A stretch of 51,580 nucleotides of DNA from a virus (Duplodnaviria > Caudoviricetes): IMG/VR virus record IMGVR_UViG_3300020061_000009, positions 1-51,580 of that record; one strand, 5' to 3'. Each line of letters starts with the position of its first letter. Position 1 is the first letter of the stretch. Positions 7,989-23,592 of the stretch are shown here, piece by piece. Under the pieces are notes generated by a model, which did no database searches, was not told the DNA's origin, and worked only from the letters and a program-made list of their open reading frames with translations. The position numbers were made by a program, and so were the translations under genes.

Positions 7989-8432
7989 CTAAGGGTTTGC
8001 CGTGCGCTCAAAGGGCGTTTCCGTCTTGACCAGGCTTTCGCCACACGGTCGGCAGCTGCCGAACCAGACCAGACGTGCGCCAGTACGGAAGACGCTGACC
8101 GAAATCCGGTTGGGCTTGTATCGCCGGCAGACATCGCAGGTCCAGTTTTCCACGCCGCTATCCGGTAGCAGGCCACCGCTCGCGGCGCACATCGAGCAGA
8201 CGGTAAGACCGGGCCGCCACACAGCGACGTGGAGAACCTGATGCGAACCGTTCACGTGACGGCATGCAATCCCGCGGCGAGCGGAGATCTCGGCGTCGTG
8301 CCGTTCGAGGAAGTCCCTCACGAACCTCGGCGTCGGCATGCCCTCGACGAATCGGCCGGTGAGGATTGGGCCGAGGGCCCTCAGCATCGACTCGGCCTCA
8401 GCATCGCCGGGGTCCTGCTCCGCAGTATTCAC
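7989..8432 (-). CDS. Cys-rich hypothetical protein
   Basis: CxH and three CxxC motifs. Confidence 0.65.
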   Translation of the reverse strand: MNTAEQDPGDAEAESMLRALGPILTGRFVEGMPTPRFVRDFLERHDAEISARRGIACRHVNGSHQVLHVAVWRPGLTVCSMCAASGGLLPDSGVENWTCDVCRRYKPNRISVSVFRTGARLVWFGSCRPCGESLVKTETPFERTANP

Positions 8433-9043: not shown

Positions 9044-9345
9044 GGCGCCTCCACACTCAAGGTGGTCACTGCGGCTTGCACGGACAGGACGTTACCGCGA
9101 CAACTTACGTACGCAACTCATCCGTTCGGAGGATACCCGCGAACGGACAGAAAGGGGTCGCCGGCCCCGGTGACGATCCGGGCAGTCCGCCCGTATGAAA
9201 GGCGACTGAGTCCCAACGCTCTCCGGCGAGGTCTCCACAACGGACAGCAGTTACGATCAAGCCTTCGGGGCGGAGAGGCCGGAGGAAGGCTGGCAAACGC
9301 CGCATCGGGGACGTGGTAGCAAACTGCCGCCTCCGCCCCACCTTG

Positions 9346-9416
9346 AGACCGAAGCCGGACTCGAACCGGCGTATCCCGTTTTGCAGACGGGCCCCTCACC
9401 ACTCGGGCATACGGCC
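9346..9416 (-). tRNA. tRNA-Cys(GCA)
   Basis: Cloverleaf; anticodon loop CT-GCA-AA; U73. Confidence 0.9.
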
Positions 9417-9419
9417 ATG

Positions 9420-9492
9420 CGCCCTCGACTGGGATCGAACCAGTGACACCCGCCTTCGGAAGACAGTGCTCTATCCGCTGAGCTACGAGGGC
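9420..9492 (-). tRNA. tRNA-Arg(CCG)
   Basis: Cloverleaf; loop TT-CCG-AA. Confidence 0.9.
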
Positions 9493-9515
9493 ATGCCCTG
9501 TCGTACTCTGACGCA

Positions 9516-9791
9516 ATGGCTGATCTCCGCCCGCGCGTCGTCCTGGACCTTGTCCAGGACGGCACACCGTCGTACTACACCCACGGCCGCGCCGCCTGCA
9601 TCGGCTGCCGGCGGTGGGTTTGGCTCGGCAGCGAGACCGTCGGCCCCGTATCGTCCCGCTCAGTCGACCCGTTGTGCGTGGAGTGCGCGAATCTGTACAC
9701 CCCGCCAACGGCTAAACGCCTCGGCCGGCTCAACGATCACCAACGCGACGACGGTCCTCACCCAGGGGGCTGCCCGGACGAAGCCCAGTAG
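9516..9791 (+). CDS. Small CxxC/CxxC protein antisense to the tRNA array
   Basis: CIGC...CVEC; fills a tRNA-free gap. Confidence 0.55.
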   Translation: MADLRPRVVLDLVQDGTPSYYTHGRAACIGCRRWVWLGSETVGPVSSRSVDPLCVECANLYTPPTAKRLGRLNDHQRDDGPHPGGCPDEAQ

Positions 9792-9811
9792 CAATAGGCT
9801 TCGTCCGGGAG

Positions 9812-9895
9812 TGTGGGTAGAGAGATTCGAACTCCCTGAGCGCACGCGCACCGGATTTACAGTCCGGCTCACCACACCATCGGTGACGTACCCAC
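9812..9895 (-). tRNA. tRNA-Tyr(GTA), long variable arm
   Basis: CCGGA-CTGTAAA-TCCGG. Confidence 0.85.
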
Positions 9896-9937
9896 ATGGA
9901 CAACAAACTGACCGGACGTCGAGAGGGGAGATCCACA

Positions 9938-10351
9938 ATGGGTGGTCTCTACAATATGGTCATCGGCGACGGACACGAGCACGAACGCGGCCAAATCCTC
10001 ATCGCATTACTCGGTGGCGTCGACCCTGGTCGCTTCCGCGACGCCTGGATCGAACGCGGCGAAGATGGCGATCCCGTCATTGCCATCTATACACGCAACG
10101 GCGGCGGCAACCGGGAGGAGTACAAGCCGGAAATCGAGGCCATGCGCGCCAACGCCCTGTACCTCCGCGACGCAGACGACACCTTCGACTCCACGTATGC
10201 CACGTTCTACTTCGCGGCGCCGCCGGAACACCGGGATGCCCTCCGCGGGCTCGCCGTCGACCCGGTCGACACGGACGAGGTGTGGCGACTGGCCATCGCC
10301 GCGCTCGACGCCGTATCCAGGGACGGCAAGGGTCCGTCAACGTTGGGGTGA
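9938..10351 (+). CDS. Conserved phage hypothetical protein
   Basis: GRFRDAW, YTRNGGGNR and DDTFDSTYATF motifs; GGGGAG RBS. Confidence 0.75.
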   Translation: MGGLYNMVIGDGHEHERGQILIALLGGVDPGRFRDAWIERGEDGDPVIAIYTRNGGGNREEYKPEIEAMRANALYLRDADDTFDSTYATFYFAAPPEHRDALRGLAVDPVDTDEVWRLAIAALDAVSRDGKGPSTLG

Positions 10352-10417
10352 CTGACCGGAATCGAACCGGCACCACCGGAGCCACATTCCGGCGCTCTAC
10401 CGTTGAGCTACAGTCAC
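10344..10417 (-). tRNA. tRNA-His(GTG)
   Basis: Loop AT-GTG-GC; C73-CCA. Confidence 0.9.
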
Positions 10418-10419
10418 AG

Positions 10420-10492
10420 TACCCGCGGAGGGATTTGAACCCCCGGCATCCGCTGTGTAAAAGCGGCGCTCTACCAGTTGAGCTACACGGGC
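10420..10492 (-). tRNA. tRNA-Val(TAC)
   Basis: CCGCT-TTTACAC-AGCGG. Confidence 0.9.
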
Positions 10493-10595
10493 ATGACGTT
10501 GTGCTAATCTCTCGCGGTCTCCTTGGCTTGAGGGTCGGGCTGACACGGGGCGGCGGCCGCCGCTAACTCCGCCGCCCCAACCAAGACGACGATTG

Positions 10596-10670
10596 TGCGC
10601 CAGGTGGGGATCGAACCCGACCGCGTCCTGTGTATAAGACAGGCCCCACCGACCAGATGGGCTCCGGCGC
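10596..10670 (-). tRNA. tRNA-Ile(TAT), unusual UAU anticodon
   Basis: CCTGT-CTTATAC-ACAGG; A73. Confidence 0.75.
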
Positions 10671-10671
10671 A

Positions 10672-10747
10672 TGGCTCCCTCGGCTGGTCTCGAACCAACA
10701 GCCTTGCGGTTAACAGCCGCCTGCTCCGCCAATTGAGCTACGAGGGA
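10672..10747 (-). tRNA. tRNA-Asn(GTT)
   Basis: TCCCTCG acceptor; CT-GTT-AA; GCCA end. Confidence 0.92.
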
Positions 10748-10752
10748 ATGAG

Positions 10753-10828
10753 AAGCGCGGACGGGGATCGAACCCGCAAGGTGTCCCGGGTGAAAACCGG
10801 GCGGCTCTACCAATTCGCCCACCGCGCC
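10753..10828 (-). tRNA. tRNA-Glu(TTC)
   Basis: CCCGG-TTTTCAC-CCGGG. Confidence 0.85.
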
Positions 10829-10834
10829 ATGGCG

Positions 10835-10906
10835 TGCCCCGGGCTGGTCTCGAACCAACGACCTCCGTCGCGTCAGGACGGCGTTCTCCCGCTGAACTAC
10901 CAGGGC
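10835..10906 (-). tRNA. tRNA-Val(GAC)
   Basis: CCGTC-CTGACGC-GACGG. Confidence 0.88.
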
Positions 10907-10907
10907 T

Positions 10908-10986
10908 TGGGAGCGGGACCGGGATTCGAACCCGGGAACCTCTGGGTTATGAGCCCAGCGCGCTTCCATAACTGCGCCATCCCGCA
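10908..10986 (-). tRNA. tRNA-Met(CAT), initiator-like
   Basis: GGG/CCC anticodon stem; U1.U72 mismatch. Confidence 0.85.
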
Positions 10987-10988
10987 AG

Positions 10989-11060
10989 TGGGCCGCCCGG
11001 GGCTCGAACCCGGAACCGTTGGATTAAAAGTCCACTGCACCACCGTTGTGCTAGCGGCCC
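10989..11060 (-). tRNA. tRNA-Lys(TTT)
   Basis: Loop CT-TTT-AA. Confidence 0.9.
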
Positions 11061-11069
11061 ATACTGCTG

Positions 11070-11142
11070 TCTCCCGCCCGCGATTCGAACGCGGAGCCTT
11101 CGCCCTAGGAAAGCCCTGCTCTATCCGTTGAGCTAGCGGGAG
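11070..11142 (-). tRNA. tRNA-Arg(CCT)
   Basis: Loop TT-CCT-AG; weak anticodon stem. Confidence 0.8.
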
Positions 11143-11146
11143 CCGG

Positions 11147-11219
11147 TCCCCGGGGTCGGAGTCGAACCGACAGCCGTTGGCTTAGAAGGCCACCGCTCGG
11201 TCCGTCGAGCTGCCCGGGG
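11147..11219 (-). tRNA. tRNA-Arg(TCT)
   Basis: Loop CT-TCT-AA. Confidence 0.85.
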
Positions 11220-11225
11220 GGAAAT

Positions 11226-11303
11226 TGGTGCGCCGCGAAGGATTCGAACCTTCGATCTTCCGATTAAGAGTCGGCTGCTCTGGCCAGGCTGAGCTAGCGG
11301 CGC
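11226..11303 (-). tRNA. tRNA-Lys(CTT)
   Basis: Loop CT-CTT-AA; ACCA end. Confidence 0.92.
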
Positions 11304-11321
11304 GGAGGGTATGCTGTAGGC

Positions 11322-11771
11322 ATGGCGTCCGAAGTGGAGCGTGCCTGGGTTGCGGGACTCATGGATGGGGACGGTTGCGTAACACTCGCAGGCGTCGGGG
11401 GTGCATTCCGCAAGCCGTTCGTCGTGGTCGACAGCACAGACAGCGAGATCCTCGCTGAACTGCAGCGGCTGTACGGCGGAAGCTTGGTCTCCAAGAAGAA
11501 GGCCAAGGAGCACCACAGGCAGGCTTGGTCCTGGCGCGTATACGGGTCGGACAAGATCATTAGCCTACTCGGCGACGTACTGCCGTACATGCGGTGCGAC
11601 AGCAAGGTCCGGCGGGCACGAATGCTGACCACTGAGTACAAGGCGATCACACCGAGGAACGGCAAGTACACCGAGGAGATGCGAGCCCGGAAGTTCGAGT
11701 TTGAGTCGCGCTTCATGGCCATTGGTGCGGGTCGCGGGAGCCAGTGCCGACCTGCTCAAGCGGAAGGCTGA
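11322..11771 (+). CDS. Free-standing single-motif LAGLIDADG homing endonuclease
   Basis: AWVAGLMDGDG motif; LQRLYGG and LLGDVLPYM..K patterns. Confidence 0.85.
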   Translation: MASEVERAWVAGLMDGDGCVTLAGVGGAFRKPFVVVDSTDSEILAELQRLYGGSLVSKKKAKEHHRQAWSWRVYGSDKIISLLGDVLPYMRCDSKVRRARMLTTEYKAITPRNGKYTEEMRARKFEFESRFMAIGAGRGSQCRPAQAEG

Positions 11772-11844
11772 CGAGTCGAACGCCCGGGTGTCATCCCGCC
11801 TCCGGTTTTCAAGACCGGCTGGCCACCACTGGCCGGAACCTTCC
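11761..11844 (-). tRNA. tRNA-Ser(TGA) with 8/4 acceptor/T-stem fold
   Basis: GGAAGGTT/AGCCTTCC 8 bp; GGCG/CGTC 4-bp T-stem; long variable arm; G73. Confidence 0.82.
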
Positions 11845-11849
11845 ATGCG

Positions 11850-11922
11850 TGCCCCGAGCAGGATTCGAACCTGCGACCCCCTGATCCGTAATCAGGTGCG
11901 CTATCCACTGCGCCACCAAGGC
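11850..11922 (-). tRNA. tRNA-Arg(ACG)
   Basis: CCTGA-TTACGGA-TCAGG. Confidence 0.92.
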
Positions 11923-11927
11923 ATGAG

Positions 11928-12001
11928 TCCCGTCGACAGGAGTCGAACCTGCTGTCTCCTCGTTATCAGCGAGGCGCCTCTACCACGCAGGCCGCGACGG
12001 G
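11928..12001 (-). tRNA. tRNA-Ile(GAT)
   Basis: CCTCG-CTGATAA-CGAGG. Confidence 0.85.
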
Positions 12002-12006
12002 ATGAG

Positions 12007-12095
12007 CGGAAGGACCGGGATTCGAACCCGGGGACCCGGTCGCCCGGGTCTCGGTCTTAGCAGGACCGCGCCTTAGACCCCTCGGCCACCCTTCC
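12007..12095 (-). tRNA. tRNA-Ser(GCT)
   Basis: CGGTC-CTGCTAA-GACCG; long variable arm. Confidence 0.92.
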
Positions 12096-12099
12096 ATTG

Positions 12100-12175
12100 C
12101 GCCTCGTAACGGATTCGAACCGTCGACCTCCGCCGTGACAGGGCGGCGCTCTAGACCTGACTGAGCTAACGAAGC
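12100..12175 (-). tRNA. tRNA-Asp(GTC)
   Basis: CCGCC-CTGTCAC-GGCGG; G73. Confidence 0.92.
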
Positions 12176-12180
12176 ATGCG

Positions 12181-12255
12181 TACCCGGGACAGGATTCGAA
12201 CCTGCACTGCCCTGCTCCTAAGGCAGGCGCCTCCTACCATTTGGGCTACCCGGGC
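12181..12255 (-). tRNA. tRNA-Leu(TAG), short variable loop
   Basis: CCTGC-CTTAGGA-GCAGG. Confidence 0.85.
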
Positions 12256-12256
12256 A

Positions 12257-12328
12257 TGGTGGACAACCTCGGTATCGAACCGAGCAGGCGCTGTTTGCAA
12301 AACAGCACTGCACACCTGTGCGTCGCCC
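12257..12328 (-). tRNA. tRNA-Ala(TGC), aberrant D arm
   Basis: G3.U70; GCTGT-TTTGCAA-ACAGC; ACCA end. Confidence 0.78.
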
Positions 12329-12329
12329 A

Positions 12330-12405
12330 TGGAGCCAGCGGACGGGCTCGAACCGTCTACCTCGGCGTTACGAATGCCGTGCACGACCCGTCGTGCTGCG
12401 CTGGC
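12330..12405 (-). tRNA. tRNA-Thr(CGT)
   Basis: Loop TT-CGT-AA; TCCA end. Confidence 0.87.
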
Positions 12406-12406
12406 A

Positions 12407-12481
12407 TGGAGCCGGTGGCAGGGCTCGAACCCGCTCCACCGAGGTACAGGCTCGGTGCTCCACCTGTTGAGCTTCACCGGC
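12407..12481 (-). tRNA. tRNA-Thr(TGT)
   Basis: CCGAG-CCTGTAC-CTCGG; TCCA end. Confidence 0.85.
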
Positions 12482-12521
12482 AAGTGGACAAACAGCGACG
12501 GTGCGACGTATGTAACCCATC

Positions 12522-12809
12522 GTGGACATGGATCGACCGCTTCCCTGCTTCGTCTGCAGAAAGAACCTCACCCTTGCGTTCTCGGGGAAGCCCAACGGCC
12601 AGCCGGCCGACGCCGTGATGTTCCACGCCTACGGGCAGTACGGGTCAACGGCATTCGACCCGCAGGACGATAGCCAACTCCAGGTCAACGTGTGCGACGA
12701 GTGTCTCAATGAGCGCCGCGACCTGGTGTGGCACGCGCGGTACATAAGGCAACCGGCTTTGGTGGTCTTCTCCGAGGCGTGGAACCCAGACCGGGAACCG
12801 CATGCCTGA
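12522..12809 (+). CDS. Small CxxC/CxxC protein antisense to the tRNA array
   Basis: CFVC...GQYGSTAFDP...CDEC. Confidence 0.65.
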   Translation: MDMDRPLPCFVCRKNLTLAFSGKPNGQPADAVMFHAYGQYGSTAFDPQDDSQLQVNVCDECLNERRDLVWHARYIRQPALVVFSEAWNPDREPHA

Positions 12810-12930
12810 GGAGTGCTGCTGTGCTTCGTCGGCAGGGGGTGGCAACGAACTGGTCGTCCCGTACCAGCCGCCTCCGGGATCCGTTCGAGTCCCACGCCCC
12901 TTGTCGGACTGGGGCGGGGTCTTCGCGACG

Positions 12931-13003
12931 TACCCGCGGCGAGAGTCGAACTCGCAACGACCAGGCCCTCGACCTGGCGCCTCTACCGTTGGGCTACACG
13001 GGC
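12931..13003 (-). tRNA. tRNA-Leu(GAG), short variable loop
   Basis: CCAGG-TCGAGGG-CCTGG. Confidence 0.85.
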
Positions 13004-13076
13004 ATGACGGAGACGGGGCGTCTGTAGATCGTTTAAGCTGCGGTCCTAAGACAGCCGGCAGCCCCCGTCCCCTGCG

Positions 13077-13149
13077 CTCCCCGGCGAGGATTCGAACCTC
13101 GATTTCTGCGTCCAGAGCGCAGCGGCCTGCCCAGTTAGCCGACCCGGGA
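13077..13149 (-). tRNA. tRNA-Gln(CTG)
   Basis: U1-A72; CTGCG-CTCTGGA-CGCAG. Confidence 0.88.
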
Positions 13150-13183
13150 ATGCGGCCGGCGGGTTCGCGGCCCGCCGACCCCG

Positions 13184-13627
13184 TCAGCGCTGGGCGAGCG
13201 ACGCCCACGTAGGGGCTGTCGGCTTGACCCTCAGCACCATGCCCGCCTCGGCGGGGGTGCGGTCGCCCTTGCGCTGGTTGCAGCCGTCGCACGCTGCGAC
13301 GGTGTTTGTCCACGAGTTCCGGCCGCCACGCGACGCCGGCTGAACGTGGTCGACAGTCGTTGCCGGCCGCGAGCAGTAGCCGCACTGACGGTTGTCGCGG
13401 TTGAGGACGCCGGGCCGTGACCAGGCCGGCCCGGCCGTATACCGCCACTTCGTGACCACGTACTGGATGAGCCTGACGACCCGCGGCCGCGGGAAGACGC
13501 CGAAGCGTATGTCGGGCTCCGCTTCGTGCACTACGGCGACTTCGCGGCAGAGCATTCGGATGGCGTGGCGCAGGCTGACCCGGTGCAGCGGGCCGAGGTC
13601 CGCGTTGAGTACAAGGACTGCTTCCAC
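13184..13627 (-). CDS. HNH endonuclease (McrA-like)
   Basis: VLVLNA...RDNRQCGYC...TTVDHVQPASRGG...N..AAC..CN..KG. Confidence 0.92.
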   Translation of the reverse strand: MEAVLVLNADLGPLHRVSLRHAIRMLCREVAVVHEAEPDIRFGVFPRPRVVRLIQYVVTKWRYTAGPAWSRPGVLNRDNRQCGYCSRPATTVDHVQPASRGGRNSWTNTVAACDGCNQRKGDRTPAEAGMVLRVKPTAPTWASLAQR

Positions 13628-13656
13628 CGGGATTCACCTCCTGGACGTGGTGGAAG

Positions 13657-13731
13657 TGGAACGGCTACCGAGAGTCGAACTCGGCTCTTCGCCATGGCGA
13701 GGCGACGCACTACCCGATGTGCTACAGCCGC
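13657..13731 (-). tRNA. tRNA-Gly(GCC)
   Basis: TCGCC-TCGCCAT-GGCGA; TCCA end. Confidence 0.87.
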
Positions 13732-13734
13732 ATG

Positions 13735-13995
13735 CTGTTGGGAACGGGGGCCCGCCTGCCGGTGGTCAGGCTCCCGGTGGTGCTTCTGTGGTTGGGGTGC
13801 CTTTTACCAGACTTCGCGCCTTCATGGCGGCCGGCAAGTCATTCCGGAACCTCGACGATCCCACCGTCGGGGACGGTCACCCCTATGGAAGCCTCCGAAG
13901 GGTGTTGACTGGTCTGGCGCGATGCCCAGGGCCGTCACGAGGATTGTTGGCTTGCTGGAAACCACAGACAGTGCCGGCCGGCGGCAGCAGTCAAC
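13735..13995 (-). ncRNA. Putative ~260-nt structured ncRNA inside the tRNA array
   Basis: Nested stems TCTGTGGTT/AACCACAGA and CCAGAC/GTCTGG; no convincing ORF. Confidence 0.5.
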
Positions 13996-13998
13996 GAG

Positions 13999-14071
13999 AG
14001 CCTTCGGAGAGATTCGAACTCTCAGCCTCCCGCGTACCGGGCGGGCGCTCTACCTCGTGAGCTTCGAAGGC
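13999..14071 (-). tRNA. tRNA-Thr(GGT)
   Basis: CCCGC-CCGGTAC-GCGGG. Confidence 0.86.
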
Positions 14072-14078
14072 ATGGGGG

Positions 14079-14152
14079 TGCCGCGGGCGGGATTCGAACC
14101 CGCAACCTCCCGATTTTGAGTCGGGCGCCTCTACCGTTTGGGCTACCACGGC
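14079..14152 (-). tRNA. tRNA-Leu(CAA), short variable loop
   Basis: CCCGA-CTCAAAA-TCGGG. Confidence 0.88.
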
Positions 14153-14157
14153 TTGAG

Positions 14158-14232
14158 CTGGGGGCGGGGGATTCGAACCCGAGCCATGACCTGAGCCAAA
14201 ATCAGGCAGCCTGCCGATTAGCTGAGCCCCCA
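14158..14232 (-). tRNA. tRNA-Gln(TTG)
   Basis: U1-A72; CCTGA-TTTTGGC-TCAGG. Confidence 0.85.
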
Positions 14233-14237
14233 TCGAG

Positions 14238-14309
14238 AGCGGCTGACGGGAGTTGAACCCGTTACTCCACTTTGGAAGAGTGGCATGTCGCCGTGGACAC
14301 CCCAGCCGC
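14238..14309 (-). tRNA. tRNA-Gly(TCC)
   Basis: CCACT-CTTCCAA-AGTGG; U73. Confidence 0.82.
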
Positions 14310-14414
14310 ATAGTTGCCTGGCCTTGCCCGCAACCCCATCCCGGTGGGGTTGCTGCACCTACCTGGGGCTGCAAGCAGCACCCATCCCAGAGCCAGGCCG
14401 GTAGGTTTCTAGCG

Positions 14415-14487
14415 CAGACCGTGCCGGAATCGGACCGGCCTTCTCCTCGCTGAGAACGAGGCGAGATCACCACTACTCCAACGGTCC
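14415..14487 (-). tRNA. tRNA-Glu(CTC)
   Basis: CCTCG-TTCTCAG-CGAGG; T-loop variant TCCGATT. Confidence 0.85.
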
Positions 14488-14491
14488 ATGA

Positions 14492-14568
14492 TGGTGTCCT
14501 CCCCCGGATTCGAACCGAGACCCGCTGGGCTTCAACCAGCTGCGCTTACCGCGTTACGCCAAGAGGAC
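14492..14568 (-). tRNA. tRNA-Phe(GAA)
   Basis: GCTGG-TTGAAGC-CCAGC; ACCA end. Confidence 0.9.
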
Positions 14569-14573
14569 ATGAG

Positions 14574-14646
14574 TGGACCAGCGGGGATTCGAACCCCGGA
14601 CCTCCGCCCTGCCGAGGCGGCGCGCTACCAACTGCGCTACAAGCCC
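14574..14646 (-). tRNA. tRNA-Ala(GGC)
   Basis: G3.U70; CCGCC-TCGGCAG-GGCGG. Confidence 0.88.
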
Positions 14647-14651
14647 ATGCG

Positions 14652-14723
14652 TCGGGGACCGGCGAATCGAACGCCGTGTCTTCTGCTCCCAAGGCAGACG
14701 GGTTGCCGGCTCCCTCGCCCCCG
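14652..14723 (-). tRNA. tRNA-Pro(TGG)
   Basis: C1-G72; TCTGC-CTTGGGA-GCAGA. Confidence 0.83.
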
Positions 14724-14826
14724 ATTGGTGTCCCGACCGTCGGCACCTACGCGCCGACGGTCGGGTACATCTCATGCTGTCCGCTGTGGAGTTGACAAGG
14801 TACGTCCCCGAGTTCGGGGTGCTGCG

Positions 14827-14899
14827 CACGGGCGGAAGGAGTCGAACCCACAACCTGCGGTGTTGGAGACCGCTGCTCTACCAGTTGAGCTACGCCCAT
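14827..14899 (-). tRNA. tRNA-Trp(CCA), first tRNA of the array
   Basis: GCGGT-CTCCAAC-ACCGC; G73. Confidence 0.92.
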
Positions 14900-15726: not shown

Positions 15727-16851
15727 TCAGGCCAGAGACCAATCGTGGCTGCCGGGTTCGTCAACCCACAAGGTGTGCTTGCCCTCGGTGGTGACGGTTA
15801 GGCCGAAGCGGTCGTGGCTGGGCCTGCCGGCGAGCTCCCATCGCACGTGGGCGTAGCTGACGGTGTCCCACAGGTCGCGGGATCCGCCTTGCTGGACGAG
15901 GTCGGTGCGGTCGGGTCGGTAGGTGCCGACGGTCCATGAGCGGTCCGGGGAGGCGAACAGGTAGTGGATGTCGTCGCTGCCCTCGTATTTGATCTCGACC
16001 CAGGTCAGGTCCGGTGCGGCGATCGCCAGCCATGCCAAGAAGGCCGGGTCTCCATAGTCGGTGGACACGACGCGGCCGGACACGCGATGGTTCGACTTTT
16101 GGAGTGCGATCGCCTCCAGGTTGGACAGGCGCCGGGGTCCGTCAGCCGATCGGGCCTCGATGAATCCTGCGAAGCCGAGCGACTTGCCTTCGGCGCAGGT
16201 TCCGTCGTCGGCGACGGTGAGCTTCATGACGCCGACGCCGACGTTCGCGAGGACGACTCCTCCGGGTATGCATAGCTTGATCCACGCCGCGGGGACACGG
16301 TTGGTACTGCACGTCGCGATGACCCGGTCGTACAGTGCGCCGTCTTCGTAGTCGAGCCCGTCGCCGACGATCAGCGTCGGCGAGAAGCCCACGGCATCGA
16401 GAGCTGTCCTTGCTGAGGTGACCAGGTCCGGGTCGATGTCGATGCTGGTCACCTGCTCGTCGCCGAGGCGGTGACACAACAGGGCGCAGTTGTAGGCGGT
16501 TCCCGTGCCGATCTCGAGGACACGGTGATGATCCTCGAGCTCCAGAGCTTCGAGCATCATCGCGGTGACGCTCGGCTGCGTAGACGAGCTCGTGGCGGTG
16601 CCTTGCGGGTTGTGGTGGGTGACGAGCGAGTCGTCGGTGTAGACAACGTCCAGCCACCGTGCGTATTGCTCCGGGTCGCTGGAGTCGATCCACTCTTGCT
16701 CGCCGCCCGGTAGCACGTGGTAGAACCTGGGCGCGAACACGGTGCGCGGCACGGCGGCGAAGGCGTCGATCCATTCGGGTTGGGTGAGTGTGCCGGCCGC
16801 GCAGAGCGTCGCGACGAGGCGTTGACGGGGCGATTCCGTGGCGAGGGTCAT
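15727..16851 (-). CDS. PIMT-like O-methyltransferase of an ATP-grasp RiPP system
   Basis: AVPR..F, TSSSTQP, VLEIGTGTAYNCALL and YDRVIATC motifs; ATGA coupling to the ligase. Confidence 0.9.
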   Translation of the reverse strand: MTLATESPRQRLVATLCAAGTLTQPEWIDAFAAVPRTVFAPRFYHVLPGGEQEWIDSSDPEQYARWLDVVYTDDSLVTHHNPQGTATSSSTQPSVTAMMLEALELEDHHRVLEIGTGTAYNCALLCHRLGDEQVTSIDIDPDLVTSARTALDAVGFSPTLIVGDGLDYEDGALYDRVIATCSTNRVPAAWIKLCIPGGVVLANVGVGVMKLTVADDGTCAEGKSLGFAGFIEARSADGPRRLSNLEAIALQKSNHRVSGRVVSTDYGDPAFLAWLAIAAPDLTWVEIKYEGSDDIHYLFASPDRSWTVGTYRPDRTDLVQQGGSRDLWDTVSYAHVRWELAGRPSHDRFGLTVTTEGKHTLWVDEPGSHDWSLA

Positions 16852-17786
16852 GCGGGGTCTCCTTGGAGGTCTGCGGCGATAGCGTCGGCGATCGGTTGTC
16901 CGGTAGCGTCCTCGACCCAGCCCCACTGCCCGTTCGGGTTGATCTCCAGGAACCACCAGACGTCGCTGGGATCAACGACGAAGTCCAGCGCACCGAAGCG
17001 CAGCCGCAACGCCGCCATGAGTGCCCGGACTCCGGCCGCGACGTCGTCAGGCACGTCGATCGGGGTGAACTTCAGGGAGGCGTAGTCGGTTCGCCAGTCG
17101 AGCCGGGCCGCCTCGGAACCAGCGTCGATACGTGCAGCGAACAGGCGCTCGCCGACGACGGTGAGGCGCACCTCGTACTGCTTGGGCACGAACTCTTGGA
17201 ACAGGTGCGCGGTTTGGTCGACGCCAGTGAGAGTGGCGCCCCGGGGCAACGCCTGGGTGTAGATGGCGTGTCCAAGCACGGTCGACGGGCTGCCGGACAG
17301 TGTTTTGTAGACGGCTCCCTCGGCGTCGCCGAGAAAGTCCCGCGCATGTCGCGGGTCGTTGGTGATGAGGGTGGAAGGCACGGCGAGGCCGCTGCCGATC
17401 GCCGCGGCGATCTGCACAGGCTTGGTCGCGGCGGCCATGTGGTGCGGGTTGTTGACCCATCGGCAGTTGATCGCCGCAAGGACACCGCCGAAGCCGTGCC
17501 GGGCCTCTCGTACTGCCCACTCAGCCTCAGCGCCTGACATGTCGCCAGTCATTCGGAACGGCGATGGCCGCCGGTAGTAGACCGCAGTGATGTCGGCCAA
17601 GTCGATCGTACGGGGGCCGGCACTGATGACGCCTCGCCAGCCGTCCTCGCCGGTCGTGGCTGACATGCGCAGTGCTGTCGGGAAGTCGCCCAGGTCTATC
17701 CGGGCGACAGGGACTCTGCCATGTAGTTGGAGGACAACTCTGTCTGCGGTGAGGTCCTGCTCCTGGCTGATAACGAGGACTGTCAA
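16848..17786 (-). CDS. ATP-grasp RiPP maturase (graspetide synthetase)
   Basis: YYRRP, PSTLITND, FQEFVPKQYEVRLTVVG, LDWR and FLEINPNGQWGW motifs. Confidence 0.93.
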   Translation of the reverse strand: MTVLVISQEQDLTADRVVLQLHGRVPVARIDLGDFPTALRMSATTGEDGWRGVISAGPRTIDLADITAVYYRRPSPFRMTGDMSGAEAEWAVREARHGFGGVLAAINCRWVNNPHHMAAATKPVQIAAAIGSGLAVPSTLITNDPRHARDFLGDAEGAVYKTLSGSPSTVLGHAIYTQALPRGATLTGVDQTAHLFQEFVPKQYEVRLTVVGERLFAARIDAGSEAARLDWRTDYASLKFTPIDVPDDVAAGVRALMAALRLRFGALDFVVDPSDVWWFLEINPNGQWGWVEDATGQPIADAIAADLQGDPA

Positions 17787-18331: not shown

Positions 18332-19093
18332 GTGTCGGACCCGGCACCTGCCTACCGGCGGGTACTCACAGAGCTACGGACACTGATCCTGTCCGGCCAG
18401 CTCCAACCGGGGGAACGCCTGCCGTCAATACGGGAGATCGCCGAACGCTACGAGGTCACCCAAGGAACCGCCTCCGACGCGCTCCGCTGGCTCCGCACCG
18501 AGGGACACATCGTCAGCCGCCACGGCTCCGGAAACTACGTCCGCGAATACCGGGCCATCCCTCGCAGCTCGCCAGGACGACTCGCGAAACAGCGCTGGAT
18601 GAGTGGCCTGTCCATTCAGGAAGCCGACACCGGACAGCGACCGAACACCGCCGACGTTGAGGTCGGCGAAACCCCCGCACCCGATTGGGTCGCCGGCCCG
18701 CTCGGTCTGAAGGACGGAACCCCGGTTGTGTTCCGGGCACGCCGCTTCGTGGTTGACGGCCGCTACGTCCAGCTCGCGACCTCGTACCTGCCGACAGCGC
18801 TCGCCCGGGGCACCGCGATCATGCACACGGACTCAGGCCCTGGCGGCATCTACGCGAGGCTCGCCGAAACCGGCCACGAGCCGACTGCGTTCACGGAGCA
18901 TTTGCGCGTCCGGATGCCGCTCCCTGTAGAGGTCGAACGCCTCGACCTGCCGGACGGCACTCCGGTCCTGGAGATCACCCGCCACGCGTTTCAAGCGGAC
19001 GGCCTATGCGTCGAAGTCAACCGGATGGTCCTGGACGGAACGGCGTACGTTCTGGACTACTCGTTCCCTGCGGAGACCGCAGGCTCAAGGTGA
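18332..19093 (+). CDS. GntR-family regulator (wHTH + UTRA, KorSA-like)
   Basis: GQLQPGERLPSIREIAERY...G.GNYVR; UTRA-like C-terminal domain. Confidence 0.92.
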   Translation: MSDPAPAYRRVLTELRTLILSGQLQPGERLPSIREIAERYEVTQGTASDALRWLRTEGHIVSRHGSGNYVREYRAIPRSSPGRLAKQRWMSGLSIQEADTGQRPNTADVEVGETPAPDWVAGPLGLKDGTPVVFRARRFVVDGRYVQLATSYLPTALARGTAIMHTDSGPGGIYARLAETGHEPTAFTEHLRVRMPLPVEVERLDLPDGTPVLEITRHAFQADGLCVEVNRMVLDGTAYVLDYSFPAETAGSR

Positions 19094-19155
19094 CGCGGCT
19101 GGTCGCCGAGTATGTGGACGGCTTCTACGTCGAGACGAAGGGCGAAGACCACAAT

Positions 19156-19189
19156 GGACCCCGGGCCGCATATCCGACGACCCGGGGCC
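19156..19189. terminator. GC-rich hairpin, probable bidirectional terminator
   Basis: GGACCCCGGG...CCCGGGGCC between convergent units. Confidence 0.6.
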
Positions 19190-19600
19190 TTCTCATGTAT
19201 GCGGGATTCGAACCCGCAATCTTCGGTTTTACAGACCGATGGGCTGCCATTGCCCAAATACGGTGAGTGTTGCCGCCACATTGTCACACCAGCGACGTTT
19301 AAGGGCACCTCTTAGATCAAAGTGAGCGCGCTCTGCCATTGAGCTAGGGGAGCACGTGGAGCTCCCCGCGGGACTCGAACCCGCAACCTCGCGCAACGAT
19401 GGTGTCCGGGCGATCTGGTGGTGATCGACGGCAATGCTGAGTCTGGGACAAGAGCCTAAGTCTGCCGGCACCCGCTGCCTCTACCAGTTGGGCTACCGGG
19501 GCATGTGGAGCCCCGGGCCGGGATCGAACCTGCACCTTGGCGGGTGGTGTTGACGGCTGAGTTTGAGCCTGAACTTGTGTCCTTTACAAAGGGTGATTCA
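19190..19600 (-). ncRNA. Large structured RNA with two circularly permuted tRNA-like domains and a terminal tRNA-Tyr(GTA)-like domain
   Basis: T-arm > closed acceptor > D-arm order at 19470-19545 and 19326-19394; long-range stems; cloverleaf at 19192-19267. Confidence 0.8.
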
Positions 19601-19623
19601 TAGGGTCCTCGATGGGAAGGGCT

Positions 19624-20355
19624 TTACCCGAAGACGTAGGAGAAGATCTTCGCGCCGATCACCTGGTCCGTGACGAGTTCCATGTTGGCCTGCTCCCGGG
19701 CCACCTTGACCGCCTCGGCGAGCGTGACCACGCGGGCCTTGATTTCGGAGATCCGCGCCCGCGGCAGTGCCCCCGAATACTTGACGGTCGTCCAGTAGCC
19801 CGCGAGCACATCCTCGGAGTACATCTCGACCTGTGCGGGATGCCGGTCGGTGGCCTCTGCTCTCACGTGATTGCGGGGCACCTTCTTCGACCTGGTCGTG
19901 CTCGCCGGCGCCGTCGCCCAAGCCTCAGCGACGTCGTCATACGTCCACGCCTCCGACGGGTCTAGGGCCGGCAGCTTGCTGACGAAGGTGTGCAGGTCGA
20001 TGAGTTGCTTCTCCAGGAACAACAAGTACGTGACGGGCACGTCGTAGGCGAGCACGTCGCCGCCCACGATGATGTTGGCCTTCGCGATTCCATTCGCGAC
20101 GTCCTTTGTCAGAGTGACGTCCATCAGCCGCGTGAGTGCGGTCACGACCTCCTTGATGATGTCGTCGGACCGCAACTGGACCCGTGTCGACTCAGGCGGC
20201 AGTTGCTCGCCCTCGTCGTCCTTCGGCCGGTACGTGCGAGCAAGGCCCGACAGGAGCGGACCCTTCTGCAGCTGGTGGTGCGCGTCGGTGAGCGCCGCGT
20301 GCGCGCGGGACTTGACGCCCTTCTCGACGGCGACGATCTTATTGAGCTGACCCAT
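19624..20355 (-). CDS. Conserved coiled-coil hypothetical protein (recalled as DUF7873-like, unverified)
   Basis: LN.IVAVEKGVK, RTYRPKDDEGEQLPPE, DVPVTYLLFLEKQL and AVKVAREQAN motifs. Confidence 0.85.
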   Translation of the reverse strand: MGQLNKIVAVEKGVKSRAHAALTDAHHQLQKGPLLSGLARTYRPKDDEGEQLPPESTRVQLRSDDIIKEVVTALTRLMDVTLTKDVANGIAKANIIVGGDVLAYDVPVTYLLFLEKQLIDLHTFVSKLPALDPSEAWTYDDVAEAWATAPASTTRSKKVPRNHVRAEATDRHPAQVEMYSEDVLAGYWTTVKYSGALPRARISEIKARVVTLAEAVKVAREQANMELVTDQVIGAKIFSYVFG

Positions 20356-20365: not shown

Positions 20366-21154
20366 CTAGGCAGGCGCAGAGCCGTCCTCTATGGGTTCGT
20401 GTTCGCCGTCGGCTGAATCGCCGAGCTCCGAAAGGTCAACGACGCGGATGTTGCGTGCCAGCCTGGTCCCGTCGCAGTCGAGGCCGACCACCCGGACCGG
20501 GCCGTGGCCCATGTCGGCGACGGTCTCGTACTGGCAGTGATAGTGGCCATGCCAGGCCCACGACGGGCGTACGGCGTCGGCGACCCTGCGTAGTTGGAGG
20601 CGTTGACTGTCGGCTCGGATCAGGTCGAGCGGTGGCCACAGGTGTGCGGACTCGGCAAGGCCCGGGATGTCGACGCCGGTTGGGCAGTCGTGGGACACGA
20701 GCACGTCAACCGGCCCGCCGGCGATTGCTTGCTCGACCTGCTCGTCGGTGATCTCCTCCTCCCTCCACCATGAGACGCCCGGTACCCGCCACTTGCGGTC
20801 GATCGAATAGGCGCCACCCAACGCCAGGAACGAAACGTCGCCCCACGTCCAGCGGAAGCCGCGGGGAAGGTGCCAGATCCGGTCGGTCAGCTGTCGCCGC
20901 CCGTCCTCACGGATGGGATACCGCAGCAAGGTCGGGAAGCACTCGTGGTTTCCGTCCACGAACCACAGCTCCAGCCCGGCCTTGCGGAGTGCCGCGTCGA
21001 CCCCCTTCACGAACCCCGGCGGGAATTCATAGCCGAAGTCGCCCAAGTGGACAATGATGTCCGCGTTCAACGAGCTGGCGTGCCTGATCGCCCTTCGCGC
21101 CCAGTCCCGGTTGCAATGCCAGTCGCCAGCGAAGGCGATCCGCTTAGGCTCCAT
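20366..21154 (-). CDS. Calcineurin-like metallophosphoesterase
   Basis: GDWH, GDFG, DGNHE, SHDCP and HGHYH motifs. Confidence 0.92.
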   Translation of the reverse strand: MEPKRIAFAGDWHCNRDWARRAIRHASSLNADIIVHLGDFGYEFPPGFVKGVDAALRKAGLELWFVDGNHECFPTLLRYPIREDGRRQLTDRIWHLPRGFRWTWGDVSFLALGGAYSIDRKWRVPGVSWWREEEITDEQVEQAIAGGPVDVLVSHDCPTGVDIPGLAESAHLWPPLDLIRADSQRLQLRRVADAVRPSWAWHGHYHCQYETVADMGHGPVRVVGLDCDGTRLARNIRVVDLSELGDSADGEHEPIEDGSAPA

Positions 21155-21377
21155 CGGAGTGCCCTCCGGCAGGCCGGGCCCGGTGGCACCAGCACACGCA
21201 TTTGATGTCGCAGACCTTGCAGTGGGACCGGTGCTTCGTGGATCCGTCGTACCGCTGCGCTTGGATCTGGCAGTATGCGTGTCCGTCGCCGCCATGCAGG
21301 CAGCCGGTAGATAGGTACCAGTGCCTCCCGCCGAGCAGCGTGACGAACCGCAGAACGTGGTACATCAACCTGGCCAT
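21144..21377 (-). CDS. Small Cys/His-rich protein
   Basis: YLSTGCLHG..H.YC...CKVC...C.C.CH. Confidence 0.7.
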   Translation of the reverse strand: MARLMYHVLRFVTLLGGRHWYLSTGCLHGGDGHAYCQIQAQRYDGSTKHRSHCKVCDIKCVCWCHRARPAGGHSDGA

Positions 21378-21380: not shown

Positions 21381-22295
21381 TCAGAAGTCCCCCGGGGCGA
21401 CCTGGAAGACGGTAAGGCCGAGCGACCTCCACATGTCCACCACCTGCTGTCTGTCGTCGAGAACGCAGACCACATCCCAGTTCCGTCGGATGTGATTGTC
21501 AAACAGTTCCCGCTTGACCACGGCGTCCTTTCGCATGTCCCCGACCGGCCGCATCCACAACGCGGCGTAGGGCACGGCGACGTGCTCGGCCAACCACTTC
21601 TCGGTAGCGGCTCGGCACGCTTCGGTCCGGCCTGAGCAGAAGATGACTGCGTGGCCGGCCGCATGCATCGCCCTGACCGTCTGGACCACAGCCCGGTTCG
21701 GCCGGTCCTCCTGAACCCGGGTCTCGTCATACGGCGACCGGCCGCACATGAGGGCAACCGTGCCGTCCAGGTCGACCAGGACGGCCTTTGGGGCGCCGGC
21801 GTGCGGCACGTATGGCTCCGGTGCCTCGTCGACTGCATCGGTCTCCTCCGCGAGAGGCAGCGGGTACGGCCTGCCGGCGATGTACCGCTGGCGCATGTCC
21901 CGGATCCGGTCCTCCGGCACCCGGGCGACGCCTTCGCGGGCGGCGTTGCGGTCCAGGCACACCTGGAGCGGGACGTTGGTCAGATCCCAGACCCTGAAGT
22001 CGGCGCCAGCGAGCATTGCGAGGCGTCGGAGGTCCCGGGCGGTCCGGGAGGGCAAGTTGGTGTCGTCCACGATCACGTCAACGCCACGTTTGAGTAACGC
22101 GCCCACGGCAGCGTCCCGGATCACCTGGATCTGTTTCTCTGTGTCCTGCCCGAGAAACACAGAAGCATGCGCCATTCCCCGAATGTCGTCGCGGTTGATT
22201 CGCGCTCGCCCGGCCGGGTCCGCTGCTACCCAGTTCCGGGCGTACGTGGTCTTGCCCGAAGCCGGCAATCCACGGGTGATGGTCAGCGTGGTCAT
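21381..22295 (-). CDS. Polynucleotide 5'-kinase/3'-phosphatase (T4 PNKP-like)
   Basis: RGLPASGKTT, INRDDIR, DDTNL; HAD motifs DLDGT, SGR, DDR. Confidence 0.93.
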   Translation of the reverse strand: MTTLTITRGLPASGKTTYARNWVAADPAGRARINRDDIRGMAHASVFLGQDTEKQIQVIRDAAVGALLKRGVDVIVDDTNLPSRTARDLRRLAMLAGADFRVWDLTNVPLQVCLDRNAAREGVARVPEDRIRDMRQRYIAGRPYPLPLAEETDAVDEAPEPYVPHAGAPKAVLVDLDGTVALMCGRSPYDETRVQEDRPNRAVVQTVRAMHAAGHAVIFCSGRTEACRAATEKWLAEHVAVPYAALWMRPVGDMRKDAVVKRELFDNHIRRNWDVVCVLDDRQQVVDMWRSLGLTVFQVAPGDF

Positions 22296-22522
22296 GCGCG
22301 GACGGTACACGTGTCTCCCTTTCGCCGCTGAGCGAGTTCGGCATCAACGCCGGCGAGCAGTGCGAGAGTCAGGTGTCCGGACTGTGATGGTGGGGAAGCC
22401 TTGCCGGCCGCGATCGTCTCGAACGTTCCGTCGTCGATGTGACCGGCGACGAGGTCCAGGCCGCGGAGGAGGTTGAGCCGGATCGCGACGAGCGTGGCCG
22501 TGGTGGCGTCCGCGAAGCTCAT
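22292..22522 (-). CDS. Hypothetical protein
   Basis: ATGA coupling on both sides. Confidence 0.6.
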   Translation of the reverse strand: MSFADATTATLVAIRLNLLRGLDLVAGHIDDGTFETIAAGKASPPSQSGHLTLALLAGVDAELAQRRKGDTCTVRA

Positions 22523-23592
22523 GATGTCGGTCCCTTCCGTCGTGGCCGCAGTTGCGGCTGAAGCCCCCACATCTTCTCGGCGCAGGCCTTGACGTCCGCC
22601 AACGAGAAAAGCACATGTCCGCGCTCGTCGCGACGGGGTTTCGGCTCAACGCCCGGACGCTCCGGTTCGGCCATAAGCCGTGCGAGCTTCCCCCGGGATG
22701 CCCAGTTGGCGACGACCGAGGGACGGACATCGCGGTACCAGTGCAGGGACAGCCACGACGCGGCCATCTGCGCGTCGACAACGCCGCCGGTCTCGCCCAC
22801 AATCTCCCGCTGCCACCACTCCACCGTCTCCGCCGTGTCGCAACCGGGGCAGGTGATGAGGGCAGTCTTGCCGTCCCAGTCGAGCCGCTCGTCACAACGC
22901 CCCGGTGCCAACAGCTGCTTGCCGCCGAGATCCTCCGTGACATAGGTGACCATCAGGGGGCACTGGCCGATGTAGATACTCGTCGGGCCGGACGGGTATG
23001 CGAGTGCCCAAACTCGTCCGTGGGAAATTGCCCGCAGGTCCGCGGCGTGCTTCCCCGCGTCGGGGTGCGCGGCCAGCCACTCGGCGCTTCGCGCGACGAA
23101 GGCACTCAGCGCCTGCATGGACGTATCTGCGTACCAGTGGCGCCACATCGGGCCGATAAATCCCGGCGGCCGACGGTCAACGACCCACCTTCCCGGCACC
23201 GAGAAACCCCGAGAGACCTGGATGAGTTTCGCGATACGGCGAAGCGTGGTGGCGATCTGGGCTCGGATCTCGACCACGCCTGCGTCCACTCCGGGCGAGC
23301 AGTCCCTGGACCCGGAGGTGTGTTCACCGTGGCCGGCGCGGCGCAGCTGCACGGCGAGGTCGCGGTGCAGTGTCGCGGCTGTCACCGGGTCGTGGACGAG
23401 ACAGCCGCCGCACTTGGCGGGGTCGTCGCATCTGGCGCACCGGTCGCAGAGGCGTAGGCCCGGTGCGGCCTGGGCCGGCAGGCAGCCGCGGCAGGCGTCG
23501 GGGCCGTCCTGCCGGTCGCATTCGCTGCGGTGGCGGCGTGGCAGGTAGCAGCCGGGGTTGGCGCACGGCGGAGCGGTCGTTGGTCGTGGCAT
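22519..23592 (-). CDS. Zn-binding protein with C-terminal HTH, possible late regulator
   Basis: Several CxxC motifs; VVANWASRGKL...FSLADV. Confidence 0.75.
   Translation of the reverse strand: MPRPTTAPPCANPGCYLPRRHRSECDRQDGPDACRGCLPAQAAPGLRLCDRCARCDDPAKCGGCLVHDPVTAATLHRDLAVQLRRAGHGEHTSGSRDCSPGVDAGVVEIRAQIATTLRRIAKLIQVSRGFSVPGRWVVDRRPPGFIGPMWRHWYADTSMQALSAFVARSAEWLAAHPDAGKHAADLRAISHGRVWALAYPSGPTSIYIGQCPLMVTYVTEDLGGKQLLAPGRCDERLDWDGKTALITCPGCDTAETVEWWQREIVGETGGVVDAQMAASWLSLHWYRDVRPSVVANWASRGKLARLMAEPERPGVEPKPRRDERGHVLFSLADVKACAEKMWGLQPQLRPRRKGPTS

Follow-up and report, generated by a model that had tools for sequence, protein, structure and literature searches.

A conserved RNA with two permuted tRNA-like modules is genetically coupled to DUF7873 genes in bacteria and phages and may form a Ro60-independent ribonucleoprotein

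The stretch of DNA analysed here, called the window throughout, is the whole of a virus contig of 51,580 bp (IMG/VR record IMGVR_UViG_3300020061_000009; Duplodnaviria, Caudoviricetes). Its source is probably a pair of DNA sequencing runs from soil metagenomes. On its minus strand lies a gene for a 243-amino-acid protein of the Pfam family DUF7873, and directly downstream of this gene is a structured RNA that occupies ~430 nt in the window and has a family core of ~330 nt. We find this RNA to be a member of an undescribed and widespread structured-RNA family that is genetically coupled to DUF7873. The gene and the parts of the RNA are as follows:

19624 to 20355, minus strand: gene for the DUF7873 protein, 243 amino acids (Pfam PF25283), the genetic partner of the RNA, with a product predicted to form a homodimer
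19157 to 19590, minus strand: the whole structured RNA region, made up of a 5' scaffold, two permuted tRNA-like units, a third tRNA-like element and a 3' hairpin (profile hidden Markov model and covariance model matches; covariation in 10 helices)
19434 to 19585, minus strand: unit 1, with helix P1, CUGA/UCAG-type repeats and permuted module 1 (covariance model R1, 117 bits, E 3.8e-26)
19469 to 19546, minus strand: module 1 (sequence; Rfam YrlA model, 19.9 bits)
19270 to 19434, minus strand: unit 2, with an outer helix, two inner helices, a UUAAACG motif and module 2 (covarying alignment helices)
19324 to 19394, minus strand: module 2 (Rfam YrlA model, 36.4 bits, E 2.7e-6)
19193 to 19262, minus strand: third tRNA-like element, non-permuted, with a GUA anticodon loop (ARAGORN tRNA-Tyr(gta), 70 nt; Rfam tRNA model, 53 bits)
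19157 to 19189, minus strand: GC-rich 3' terminal hairpin (stem 19188-19181 with 19165-19158; compensatory changes at 8/8 pairs, 87.7% paired)

Both modules run, from 5' to 3', through a closing-stem strand, a variable region, the T arm, the 7-nt 3' strand of the acceptor, a 7-nt loop (U-CCA-C-R-U), the acceptor 5' strand, the dinucleotide UA, the D arm and the second closing-stem strand. Module 1 has a T arm GCAGG-UUCGAUC-CCGGC with one A.G mismatch (19533-19517), acceptor strands CCGGGGC (19516-19510) and GCCCCGG (19502-19496) joined by the loop UCCACAU (U-CCA-CAU; 19509-19503), a D arm at 19493-19477 and a closing stem CACCCGC/GCGGGUG that forms 5/5 pairs in tRNA geometry. The corresponding parts of module 2 are a T arm GCGGG-UUCGAGU-CCCGC (19384-19368), acceptor strands GGGGAGC (19367-19361) and GCUCCCC (19353-19347), the loop UCCACGU (U-CCA-CGU; 19360-19354), a D arm GCUC-AAUGGCA-GAGC (19344-19330) and a closing stem of canonical geometry with 4/5 positions paired. 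A first-pass annotation, made from the sequence alone, had proposed two such permuted modules, and every element that it listed is found in its place when the minus strand is read. The same is true of its scaffold helices, namely P1 in unit 1 (GGACA/UGUCC, 19582-19578 with 19450-19446) and, in unit 2, the outer helix (UUGCCGUC/GGCGGCAA, 19434-19427 with 19277-19270) and the helix CACCAG/CUGGUG (19420-19415 with 19292-19287). A further helix of unit 2 pairs 19407-19401 with 19309-19303, and the UUAAACG motif follows module 2 at 19302-19296.

Beyond what that annotation described, the stretch also comprises the third tRNA-like element (19262-19193) and the 3' hairpin (19189-19157). The third element is not a working tRNA-Tyr, because it has only four acceptor pairs and lacks a long variable arm; its Rfam tRNA match is limited to model positions 4-67, and an insertion matching it is present at two other loci (L004 and L084). 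It is an instance of an added anticodon-stem-loop-like hairpin, or whole tRNA-like element, that precedes the 3' hairpin with varied 'anticodons' in at most 29/52 viral and 6/70 genomic relatives, both counts being upper bounds that include some true downstream tRNAs. The 3' hairpin is probably the end of the transcript. Its loop keeps a UGG..UA-like core across phyla (alignment A2, columns 665-711), which exceeds the needs of a plain terminator.

The fold is conserved well beyond the window. In a MAFFT alignment of 70 relatives RNAalifold predicted 54 pairs, 49 of which carry compensatory changes. Our own structure of 59 pairs in 10 helices is paired in 94.6% of alignment cells as against 75.3% in shuffles, 53 of the 59 pairs change in a compensatory manner on both sides, and the covariation score of 0.549 compares with 0.190 for shuffles (0/500 as high) and with 0.09-0.14 when partners are slid by 1-3 columns, so that the covariation anticipated among homologues by the first-pass annotation is present. 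In both modules the acceptor and T helices form in at least about 99% of cells, with many pair types; the acceptor helix of module 2 reaches 99.6% with 7/7 pairs covarying, and the scaffold helices around this module (alignment columns 360-365/531-536 and 373-382/510-518) show compensatory changes at 14/14 pairs. Helix P1 does so at 4/5 pairs. The closing stems were not aligned by MAFFT because their positions vary; placed sequence by sequence in tRNA geometry in the 205 modules with a D arm, they form 5/5 pairs in 114 and 4/5 in 63, that is at least 4/5 in 177/205, whereas a shifted control gave none with 5/5. Conservation extends to unpaired motifs, namely the CUGA/UCAG-type repeats flanking module 1 and UUAAACG after module 2. 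The two modules are also differentiated from one another, the discriminator base being A in 67/78 copies of module 1 and U or G in 77/78 copies of module 2.

These data bear on whether the modules could be debris of a nearby tRNA array, that is tandem or broken tRNA genes with a permuted look by chance. On its minus strand the window does encode 35 tRNA genes (9155-14899; ARAGORN), which serve most of the amino acids and lie 4.3 kb from the RNA, and tandem tRNAs can mimic YrlA, a bacterial Y RNA with a tRNA-like domain, in searches (PMC4201824). However, the strand after the T arm pairs 7/7 with the strand before the next D arm, unlike in tandem tRNAs, the arrangement covaries over 70 sequences from several phyla, and 73/80 genomic loci have no tRNA gene within 5 kb. 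We therefore consider the chance of such an origin practically negligible.

The coupling of RNA and gene was followed across 80 genomic loci, the best of at least 595 confirmed matches, and further loci comprising 67 viral ones, two phage records and one plasmid record, 147 of which had enough sequence. A profile hidden Markov model of the conserved core places the start of the RNA within 400 nt downstream of the DUF7873 gene and on the same strand in 137/147 loci, at a median of 97 nt past the stop codon, and these loci span at least six bacterial phyla as well as phages. The downstream flanks of homologues, which the first-pass annotation had suggested extracting, thus carry the RNA almost throughout, and its proposal that the upstream protein is the partner holds in the genetic sense, in these loci as in all five DUF7873 genomes of an Actinomycetes sample (below). 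The RNA is nearby without being directly downstream in 5 further loci. By the simpler pattern of a T arm followed by a 7-bp hairpin, at least one permuted module lies within 900 nt downstream in 131/147 loci, usually two of them ~147 nt apart, and the remaining 2.72 Mb of flanking DNA, both strands included, hold 189 occurrences. Among variant arrangements, one locus carries the RNA twice in tandem, at +900 and at +1470 (L008), the RNA is displaced by 2.45 kb in two (L065 and L071) and by 0.7 kb in another (L105), it is matched only in part at +500 in L140, and it stands upstream of the gene in L141.

A covariance model of unit 1 built from relatives, R1, scores 117 bits in the window and 100-134 bits in phage and plasmid relatives. 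Among 151 sampled Actinomycetes genomes, DUF7873 is encoded in five, each with an R1 match directly downstream (124.8-134.6 bits in four, 47.2 in one), and no other R1 match in the 151 genomes exceeds 50.5 bits. Approached from the RNA side, a D-arm pattern scan of viral contigs yielded six full-length RNA matches, all six with a DUF7873 gene directly upstream; the scan is unspecific, returns mostly true tRNAs and served as a blind sample only. A DUF7873 homologue is encoded in 75 phage records, of which seven were inspected. R1 matches are clear in Arthrobacter phage Mimi (114.9 bits), Gordonia phage Guey18 (64.8 bits) and Pseudanabaena phage Pam2 (60.1 bits), and even where phage homologues are only 27-39% identical, the gene is followed immediately by permuted modules. 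Ralstonia phiRSL1, Klebsiella KpLz-2_45 and Pseudanabaena Pam2 have two such modules apiece; in Rhizobium RHph_Y65 and in Vibrio D505 a single one was found. In the Ralstonia, Klebsiella, Rhizobium and Vibrio phages (~30-32% protein identity) the modules lie in an unannotated gap or under tiny open reading frames (ORFs) after the gene, and the loops closing their acceptors measure 24-38 nt; in the Vibrio, Ralstonia and Klebsiella phages (L274, L276 and L277) this loop is itself a 24-38-nt hairpin. In Gordonia phage GodonK (L001) the existing annotation places a small ORF, gp151, on the opposite strand of the RNA region that follows gp152. Elsewhere in the GodonK sequence (7816-8344, minus strand) a transfer-messenger RNA (tmRNA) match of 90.3 bits overlaps an annotated 62-nt tRNA-His that looks mis-annotated.

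The constant position after the stop codon raises the question of whether the RNA is a cis-acting 3' untranslated region (UTR), its tRNA-like folds being only processing or stability signals, such as RNase P or RNase Z sites or exonuclease blocks, for the DUF7873 mRNA. The short same-strand spacing would fit, a consensus scan, in itself uninformative, revealed no promoter or terminator between gene and RNA, and tRNA-like 3' processing signals are known elsewhere, mascRNA being the example described (10.1101/312249). Against this, the genome of Herpetosiphon aurantiacus carries a full RNA (R1 122.8 bits; nhmmer 189 bits) 1.8 Mb from its DUF7873 gene and none beside that gene; the RNA sits between chloride-channel and glycosyltransferase genes with no DUF7873 in the fetched 3.2 kb. 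Because of this separation the RNA is not merely a 3' UTR, and it can therefore be a free-standing gene that is kept with the protein in one genome. The upstream, displaced and duplicated copies described above point the same way, and ~330 nt with single-stranded motifs and differentiated modules, kept across phyla, exceed the needs of end processing. We accordingly rate a purely cis-acting role as highly improbable.

The protein partner matches PF25283 at 343.2 bits against a cut-off of 27, with residues 1-242 aligned to profile positions 1-242 of 244, and 5116 relatives at E<=1e-3 were recovered among 6855 candidates in the protein collection. Its identity to sequences labelled Actinomycetota, Chloroflexota and Oceanobacillus is 60-74%. 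An AlphaFold2 (AF2) model with a predicted local distance difference test (pLDDT) score of 87.5 has an alpha/beta fold in which four long helices pack against a sheet with long hairpins, and the coiled-coil protein of the first-pass annotation is inaccurate as a description. The two-copy model supports a homodimer, with an ipSAE of 0.67 (runs of 0.67, 0.66 and 0.68) against 0.00 for the best of three controls, at least 97% of contacts agreeing between runs and a partner pLDDT of at least 87; this ipSAE mark was reached by 20/30 proteins whose solved structure is a pair of one chain and by 1/23 whose solved structure is a single chain, counts that are only approximate because our own alignment was used. 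The modelled interface is symmetric, strand 184-197 pairing with strand 35-45 of the other copy. The Pfam profile gave the protein a family, and neither the sequence searches nor the structural ones gave it an informative relative. Pfam at E up to 10 returned only DUF7873 itself, PHROGs and NCBIfam returned no match, and the best hit of a PDB sequence profile search had an E of 0.18; with the AF2 model as query, neither Foldseek against PDB nor a search of BFVD had a match at E<=1e-3, and the ESM Atlas listed nothing but unnamed proteins of phages and Bacillota (TM 0.43-0.56). A wide fold search reached a best Z of 8.7 with generic helical bundles only and was unusable, and TolC, at a best Z of 8.3 in a second fold search, was rejected as a fold relative at a root-mean-square deviation of 13 A. 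We found no description of DUF7873 or its RNA in the literature covered, which stops short of the supplementary YrlA locus lists of PMC4201824; these might include some of the RNAs.

At Rfam gathering scores only tRNAs are found in the window, and modules 1 and 2 are called tRNA by neither ARAGORN nor Rfam. GOLLD and ROOL are large structured phage RNAs associated with tRNA genes. They resemble the window RNA in being large conserved non-coding RNAs of phages and bacteria, often beside tRNA genes and with a function that is not known, but the window RNA is built of tRNA-like domains and has a fixed protein partner, and a match to either family is lacking both in the window at the gathering score and, within 19050-19700, with E relaxed to 10. 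In a relaxed search of 19050-19700 the only relevant matches are to YrlA (RF02553), at 36.4 bits (E 2.7e-6) for module 2 and 19.9 bits (E 0.16) for module 1 against a gathering threshold of 69, and the matches of the distant phage versions are again sub-threshold. Of the three families for which the first-pass annotation had proposed an Rfam search, therefore, YrlA alone is matched, and that below threshold. YrlA is defined in published work by its tRNA-like domain, by a stem bearing the Ro60-binding motif and by lying beside the Ro60 gene (PMC4201824; 10.1101/312249), a distance of up to ~4 kb being accepted here. The window RNA shares with it the permuted tRNA-like domain, composed of a T arm, an acceptor-like stem-loop, a D arm and a helix replacing the anticodon arm, together with the elbow-forming bases of the tRNA D and T loops, and both RNAs are encoded beside a protein partner in bacteria and phages. 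It differs in having two modules in one conserved ~330-nt RNA with scaffold motifs of its own, and in its partner, a 243-residue alpha/beta protein unrelated to the Ro60 ring. The first-pass view of a distinct multi-tRNA-mimic RNA, related to YrlA but different, is supported.

It could still be argued that this is an ordinary Ro60-type Y RNA, a YrlA/YrlB pair working with a Ro60 or Rsr protein encoded elsewhere or by the host, with DUF7873 a mere neighbour. The Rfam gathering score does not separate the two classes, since Rsr-linked actinobacterial YrlAs beside TROVE genes in two DUF7873 genomes score 46.0, 39.7 and 37.9 bits, also below 69 and similar to the 36.4 bits in the window; Rsr loci too carry two tandem YrlA-like RNAs, and TROVE is present in 6/10 genomes carrying the pair and in 4/5 DUF7873 genomes. 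What does separate them is R1, which gives 22.6-50.5 bits on Rsr-linked RNAs as against 100-135 bits on DUF7873-linked ones; most of its weak matches lie within 3 kb of a TROVE gene (TROVE being present in 16/151 Actinomycetes genomes). The scaffold differs as well, the conserved-core profile aligning to Rsr-linked RNAs over only 54-81 nt of the tRNA-like part. No TROVE gene occurs in the 51,580-bp record, as the first-pass annotation had observed, and 4/10 genomes with the pair lack TROVE, which in no case adjoins DUF7873 (74 kb away in G001), whereas the linkage of the RNA to DUF7873 is near-complete. The Ro60-binding motif GNCGAAN0-1G is absent from the window RNA and, though found somewhere in 40/141 relatives, has no fixed position there. 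A Ro60-type Y RNA in the usual sense is thus very unlikely. In two Streptomyces-like genomes (G001 and G124) DUF7873 and TROVE are ~70 kb apart on the same contig, and beside the TROVE gene of Herpetosiphon aurantiacus (L272, minus strand) long tRNA-model matches of 108 and 132 nt (6469-6576 and 6730-6861) are probably Ro60-linked tRNA-like Y RNAs with inserts.

The acceptor loops suggest how the modules might be processed. An N-CCA opens the loop in 42/80 viral, 30/120 genomic and 4/5 reference modules, at a fixed position and far above chance; the CCA noted in the first-pass annotation is hence frequent (76/205 modules) but not universal. The base before G+1 is U in 33 copies of module 1 and 49 of module 2 at 78 loci, and among the 35 tRNA genes of the window only eight encode a 3' CCA. 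Opening of the loop by RNase P, as that annotation supposed, has a published precedent in Mycobacterium smegmatis YrlA, an RNA with a 7-bp acceptor stem that RNase P cleaves and to which CCA is added (PMC4201824; 10.1101/312249), and by analogy the loops here would be cleaved likewise. The 7-bp acceptor stem, a feature shared with the window modules, is linked by the authors to cleavage by RNase P with subsequent trimming and addition of CCA; the M. smegmatis RNA differs in being bound by Rsr and adjoining rsr, and many DUF7873-linked loops already encode N-CCA.

Taken further, the modules could be precursors of split, chargeable acceptor RNAs, with the loop excised and the CCA ends aminoacylated as in two-piece tmRNA or red-algal permuted tRNA genes, and with DUF7873 acting like SmpB in place of the anticodon arm. 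The gene order of T arm, acceptor 3' strand, CCA, intervening loop and acceptor 5' strand and the dedicated small protein partner recall two-piece tmRNA and SmpB. The 7-bp stems and rightly placed N-CCA would suit such a scheme, as would the CCA gained in vivo by M. smegmatis YrlA and the 24-38-nt loops of proteobacterial phages, which come after the 3' strand, where permuted tmRNA genes have their intervening segment; at the permuted junction the beta_tmRNA model gives weak matches in L274, L276 and L277, 20.5-25.1 bits against a threshold of 84. However, the window modules lack an anticodon loop, a tag reading frame and a G3:U70 pair (their position 3 pairs are C-G and U-A), the tmRNA pseudoknot set is likewise missing and a full D arm is present, CCA is absent in 90/120 genomic modules, ARAGORN finds no tmRNA in the window, and no tmRNA family matches 19050-19700 at E up to 10. 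Precursors of this kind are therefore quite unlikely.

Two further genes precede that of DUF7873 on the same strand:

20366 to 21295, minus strand: metallophosphoesterase gene, upstream of the DUF7873 gene (Pfam and PHROGs)
21381 to 22310, minus strand: gene for a T4-type polynucleotide kinase-phosphatase (PNKP), upstream on the same strand (Pfam and PHROGs)

Homologues of PNKP and the metallophosphoesterase occur at fewer than 6 of 150 loci, so this neighbourhood is specific to the window, and the link to RNA end-healing enzymes drawn in the first-pass annotation is a matter of window context only. A reference-based ORF comparison over the 150 loci identified no conserved protein-coding neighbour of the DUF7873-RNA pair, and Pfam and PHROGs recognised no RNA ligase near the PNKP and metallophosphoesterase genes. 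The next ORF beyond PNKP (357 residues, 22519-23592, minus strand) has as its sole match PHROG 908, of function not known. Replication-type phage genes in the record include a primase-helicase, a Dda-like helicase, a DNA methyltransferase, a ParB-like protein and an HNH endonuclease. Three other genes look bacterial although they lie inside a virus record: a PCMT-like methyltransferase gene (15727-16956), an MvdD-type pre-ATP-grasp protein gene (16848-17786, with overlapping ORF calls) and a convergent GntR/UTRA regulator gene (18332-19093), the end of which abuts the 3' hairpin of the RNA.

This setting invites the view that the RNA is a decoy in phage-bacteria conflict, its tRNA-shaped domains, together with the anticodon-stem-loop-like hairpin of phage versions, soaking up tRNA-directed nucleases or toxins while DUF7873 stabilises or loads it. 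The pair is found in 75 phage records from very different hosts, often inside tRNA islands, the added hairpin is commoner in viral than in genomic versions, and in the window the pair stands beside PNKP, an enzyme of the tRNA-repair type. Most copies, however, sit in bacterial chromosomes, where neither phage context nor a conserved neighbour is seen, and the anticodon loop, the usual cut site of known tRNA nucleases, is missing from the permuted modules. Neither DUF7873 nor four neighbouring proteins match any family in PADLOC at E up to 0.01, a result of little weight either way. In type III toxin-antitoxin systems the RNA consists of tandem repeats and precedes the toxin gene; the window RNA follows its gene and has two differentiated modules. 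A decoy function overlaps the explanation that we favour, differing from it in target only, and is in our judgement unlikely.

The explanation that we favour, with somewhat better than even confidence, is a new Ro60-independent tRNA-mimic ribonucleoprotein made up of DUF7873 and the structured RNA and acting in tRNA metabolism. We infer that the RNA is transcribed and bound by DUF7873, probably as a symmetric dimer, to give a stable particle that would display the two YrlA-type permuted domains, each on its own helical scaffold. Their targets would be proteins that recognise tRNA, for example RNase P, the CCA-adding enzyme, modification enzymes or nucleases, for which the particle may act as a tether or competitor by analogy with Ro60-Y RNA particles; in phages it may serve their own tRNA islands. 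By analogy with M. smegmatis YrlA, RNase P would probably open the acceptor loops, and trimming or extension would give CCA. A bolder version, which we regard as rather unlikely, is a new ribonucleoprotein class of bacteria and phages of many phyla in which RNase P and the CCA enzyme would cut an RNA held by the dimer into paired pieces with two free acceptor ends; phages that have tRNA islands, and certain bacteria, would employ this multi-piece and possibly chargeable mimic to manipulate translation or tRNA processing or to evade tRNA-directed immunity.

A number of observations weigh against the proposed ribonucleoprotein. DUF7873 has an isoelectric point of 6.6 and no recognisable RNA-binding or catalytic domain. 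The minimum-energy fold of the single window sequence is no more stable than that of shuffles (z 0.06), so support for the fold comes from relatives and not from folding energy; helix P1 forms in only 80.8% of cells, and several pairing registers are open to the CUGA/UCAG repeats, which makes the scaffold pairing of module 1 ambiguous. CCA in the loops, besides not being universal, is not linked to whether local tRNA genes encode CCA. The association with tRNA islands is partial, at least three tRNA genes lying within 5 kb in 13/67 viral and 2/80 genomic loci. At five loci (L007, L012, L013, L059 and L143) the profile hidden Markov model found no RNA near the gene; in the genome holding L059, the one of the five that was searched further, the RNA is present elsewhere. 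The TROVE frequencies in DUF7873 genomes given above exceed the 16/151 overall, an enrichment that may reflect shared ancestry or genome size, and Ro60 may have a role in hosts with both TROVE and DUF7873.

If correct, the ribonucleoprotein would be a second, strongly conserved and Ro60-independent protein partner for tRNA mimics of the YrlA type, whereas Y RNAs have so far been defined by Ro60. We know of no factor that reads the tRNA-like domain of bacterial Y RNAs. The pairing spans actinomycetes to jumbo phages of enterobacteria, and it gives unannotated gaps or mis-called tiny ORFs downstream of DUF7873 genes in sequenced phages (GodonK, NiceHouse, Mimi, Guey18, phiRSL1 and others) a reading as an RNA gene that can be tested. 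Several of the carriers are phages of teaching laboratories and grow on safe hosts. For more than 5000 uncharacterised proteins of the DUF7873 family it suggests a likely role.

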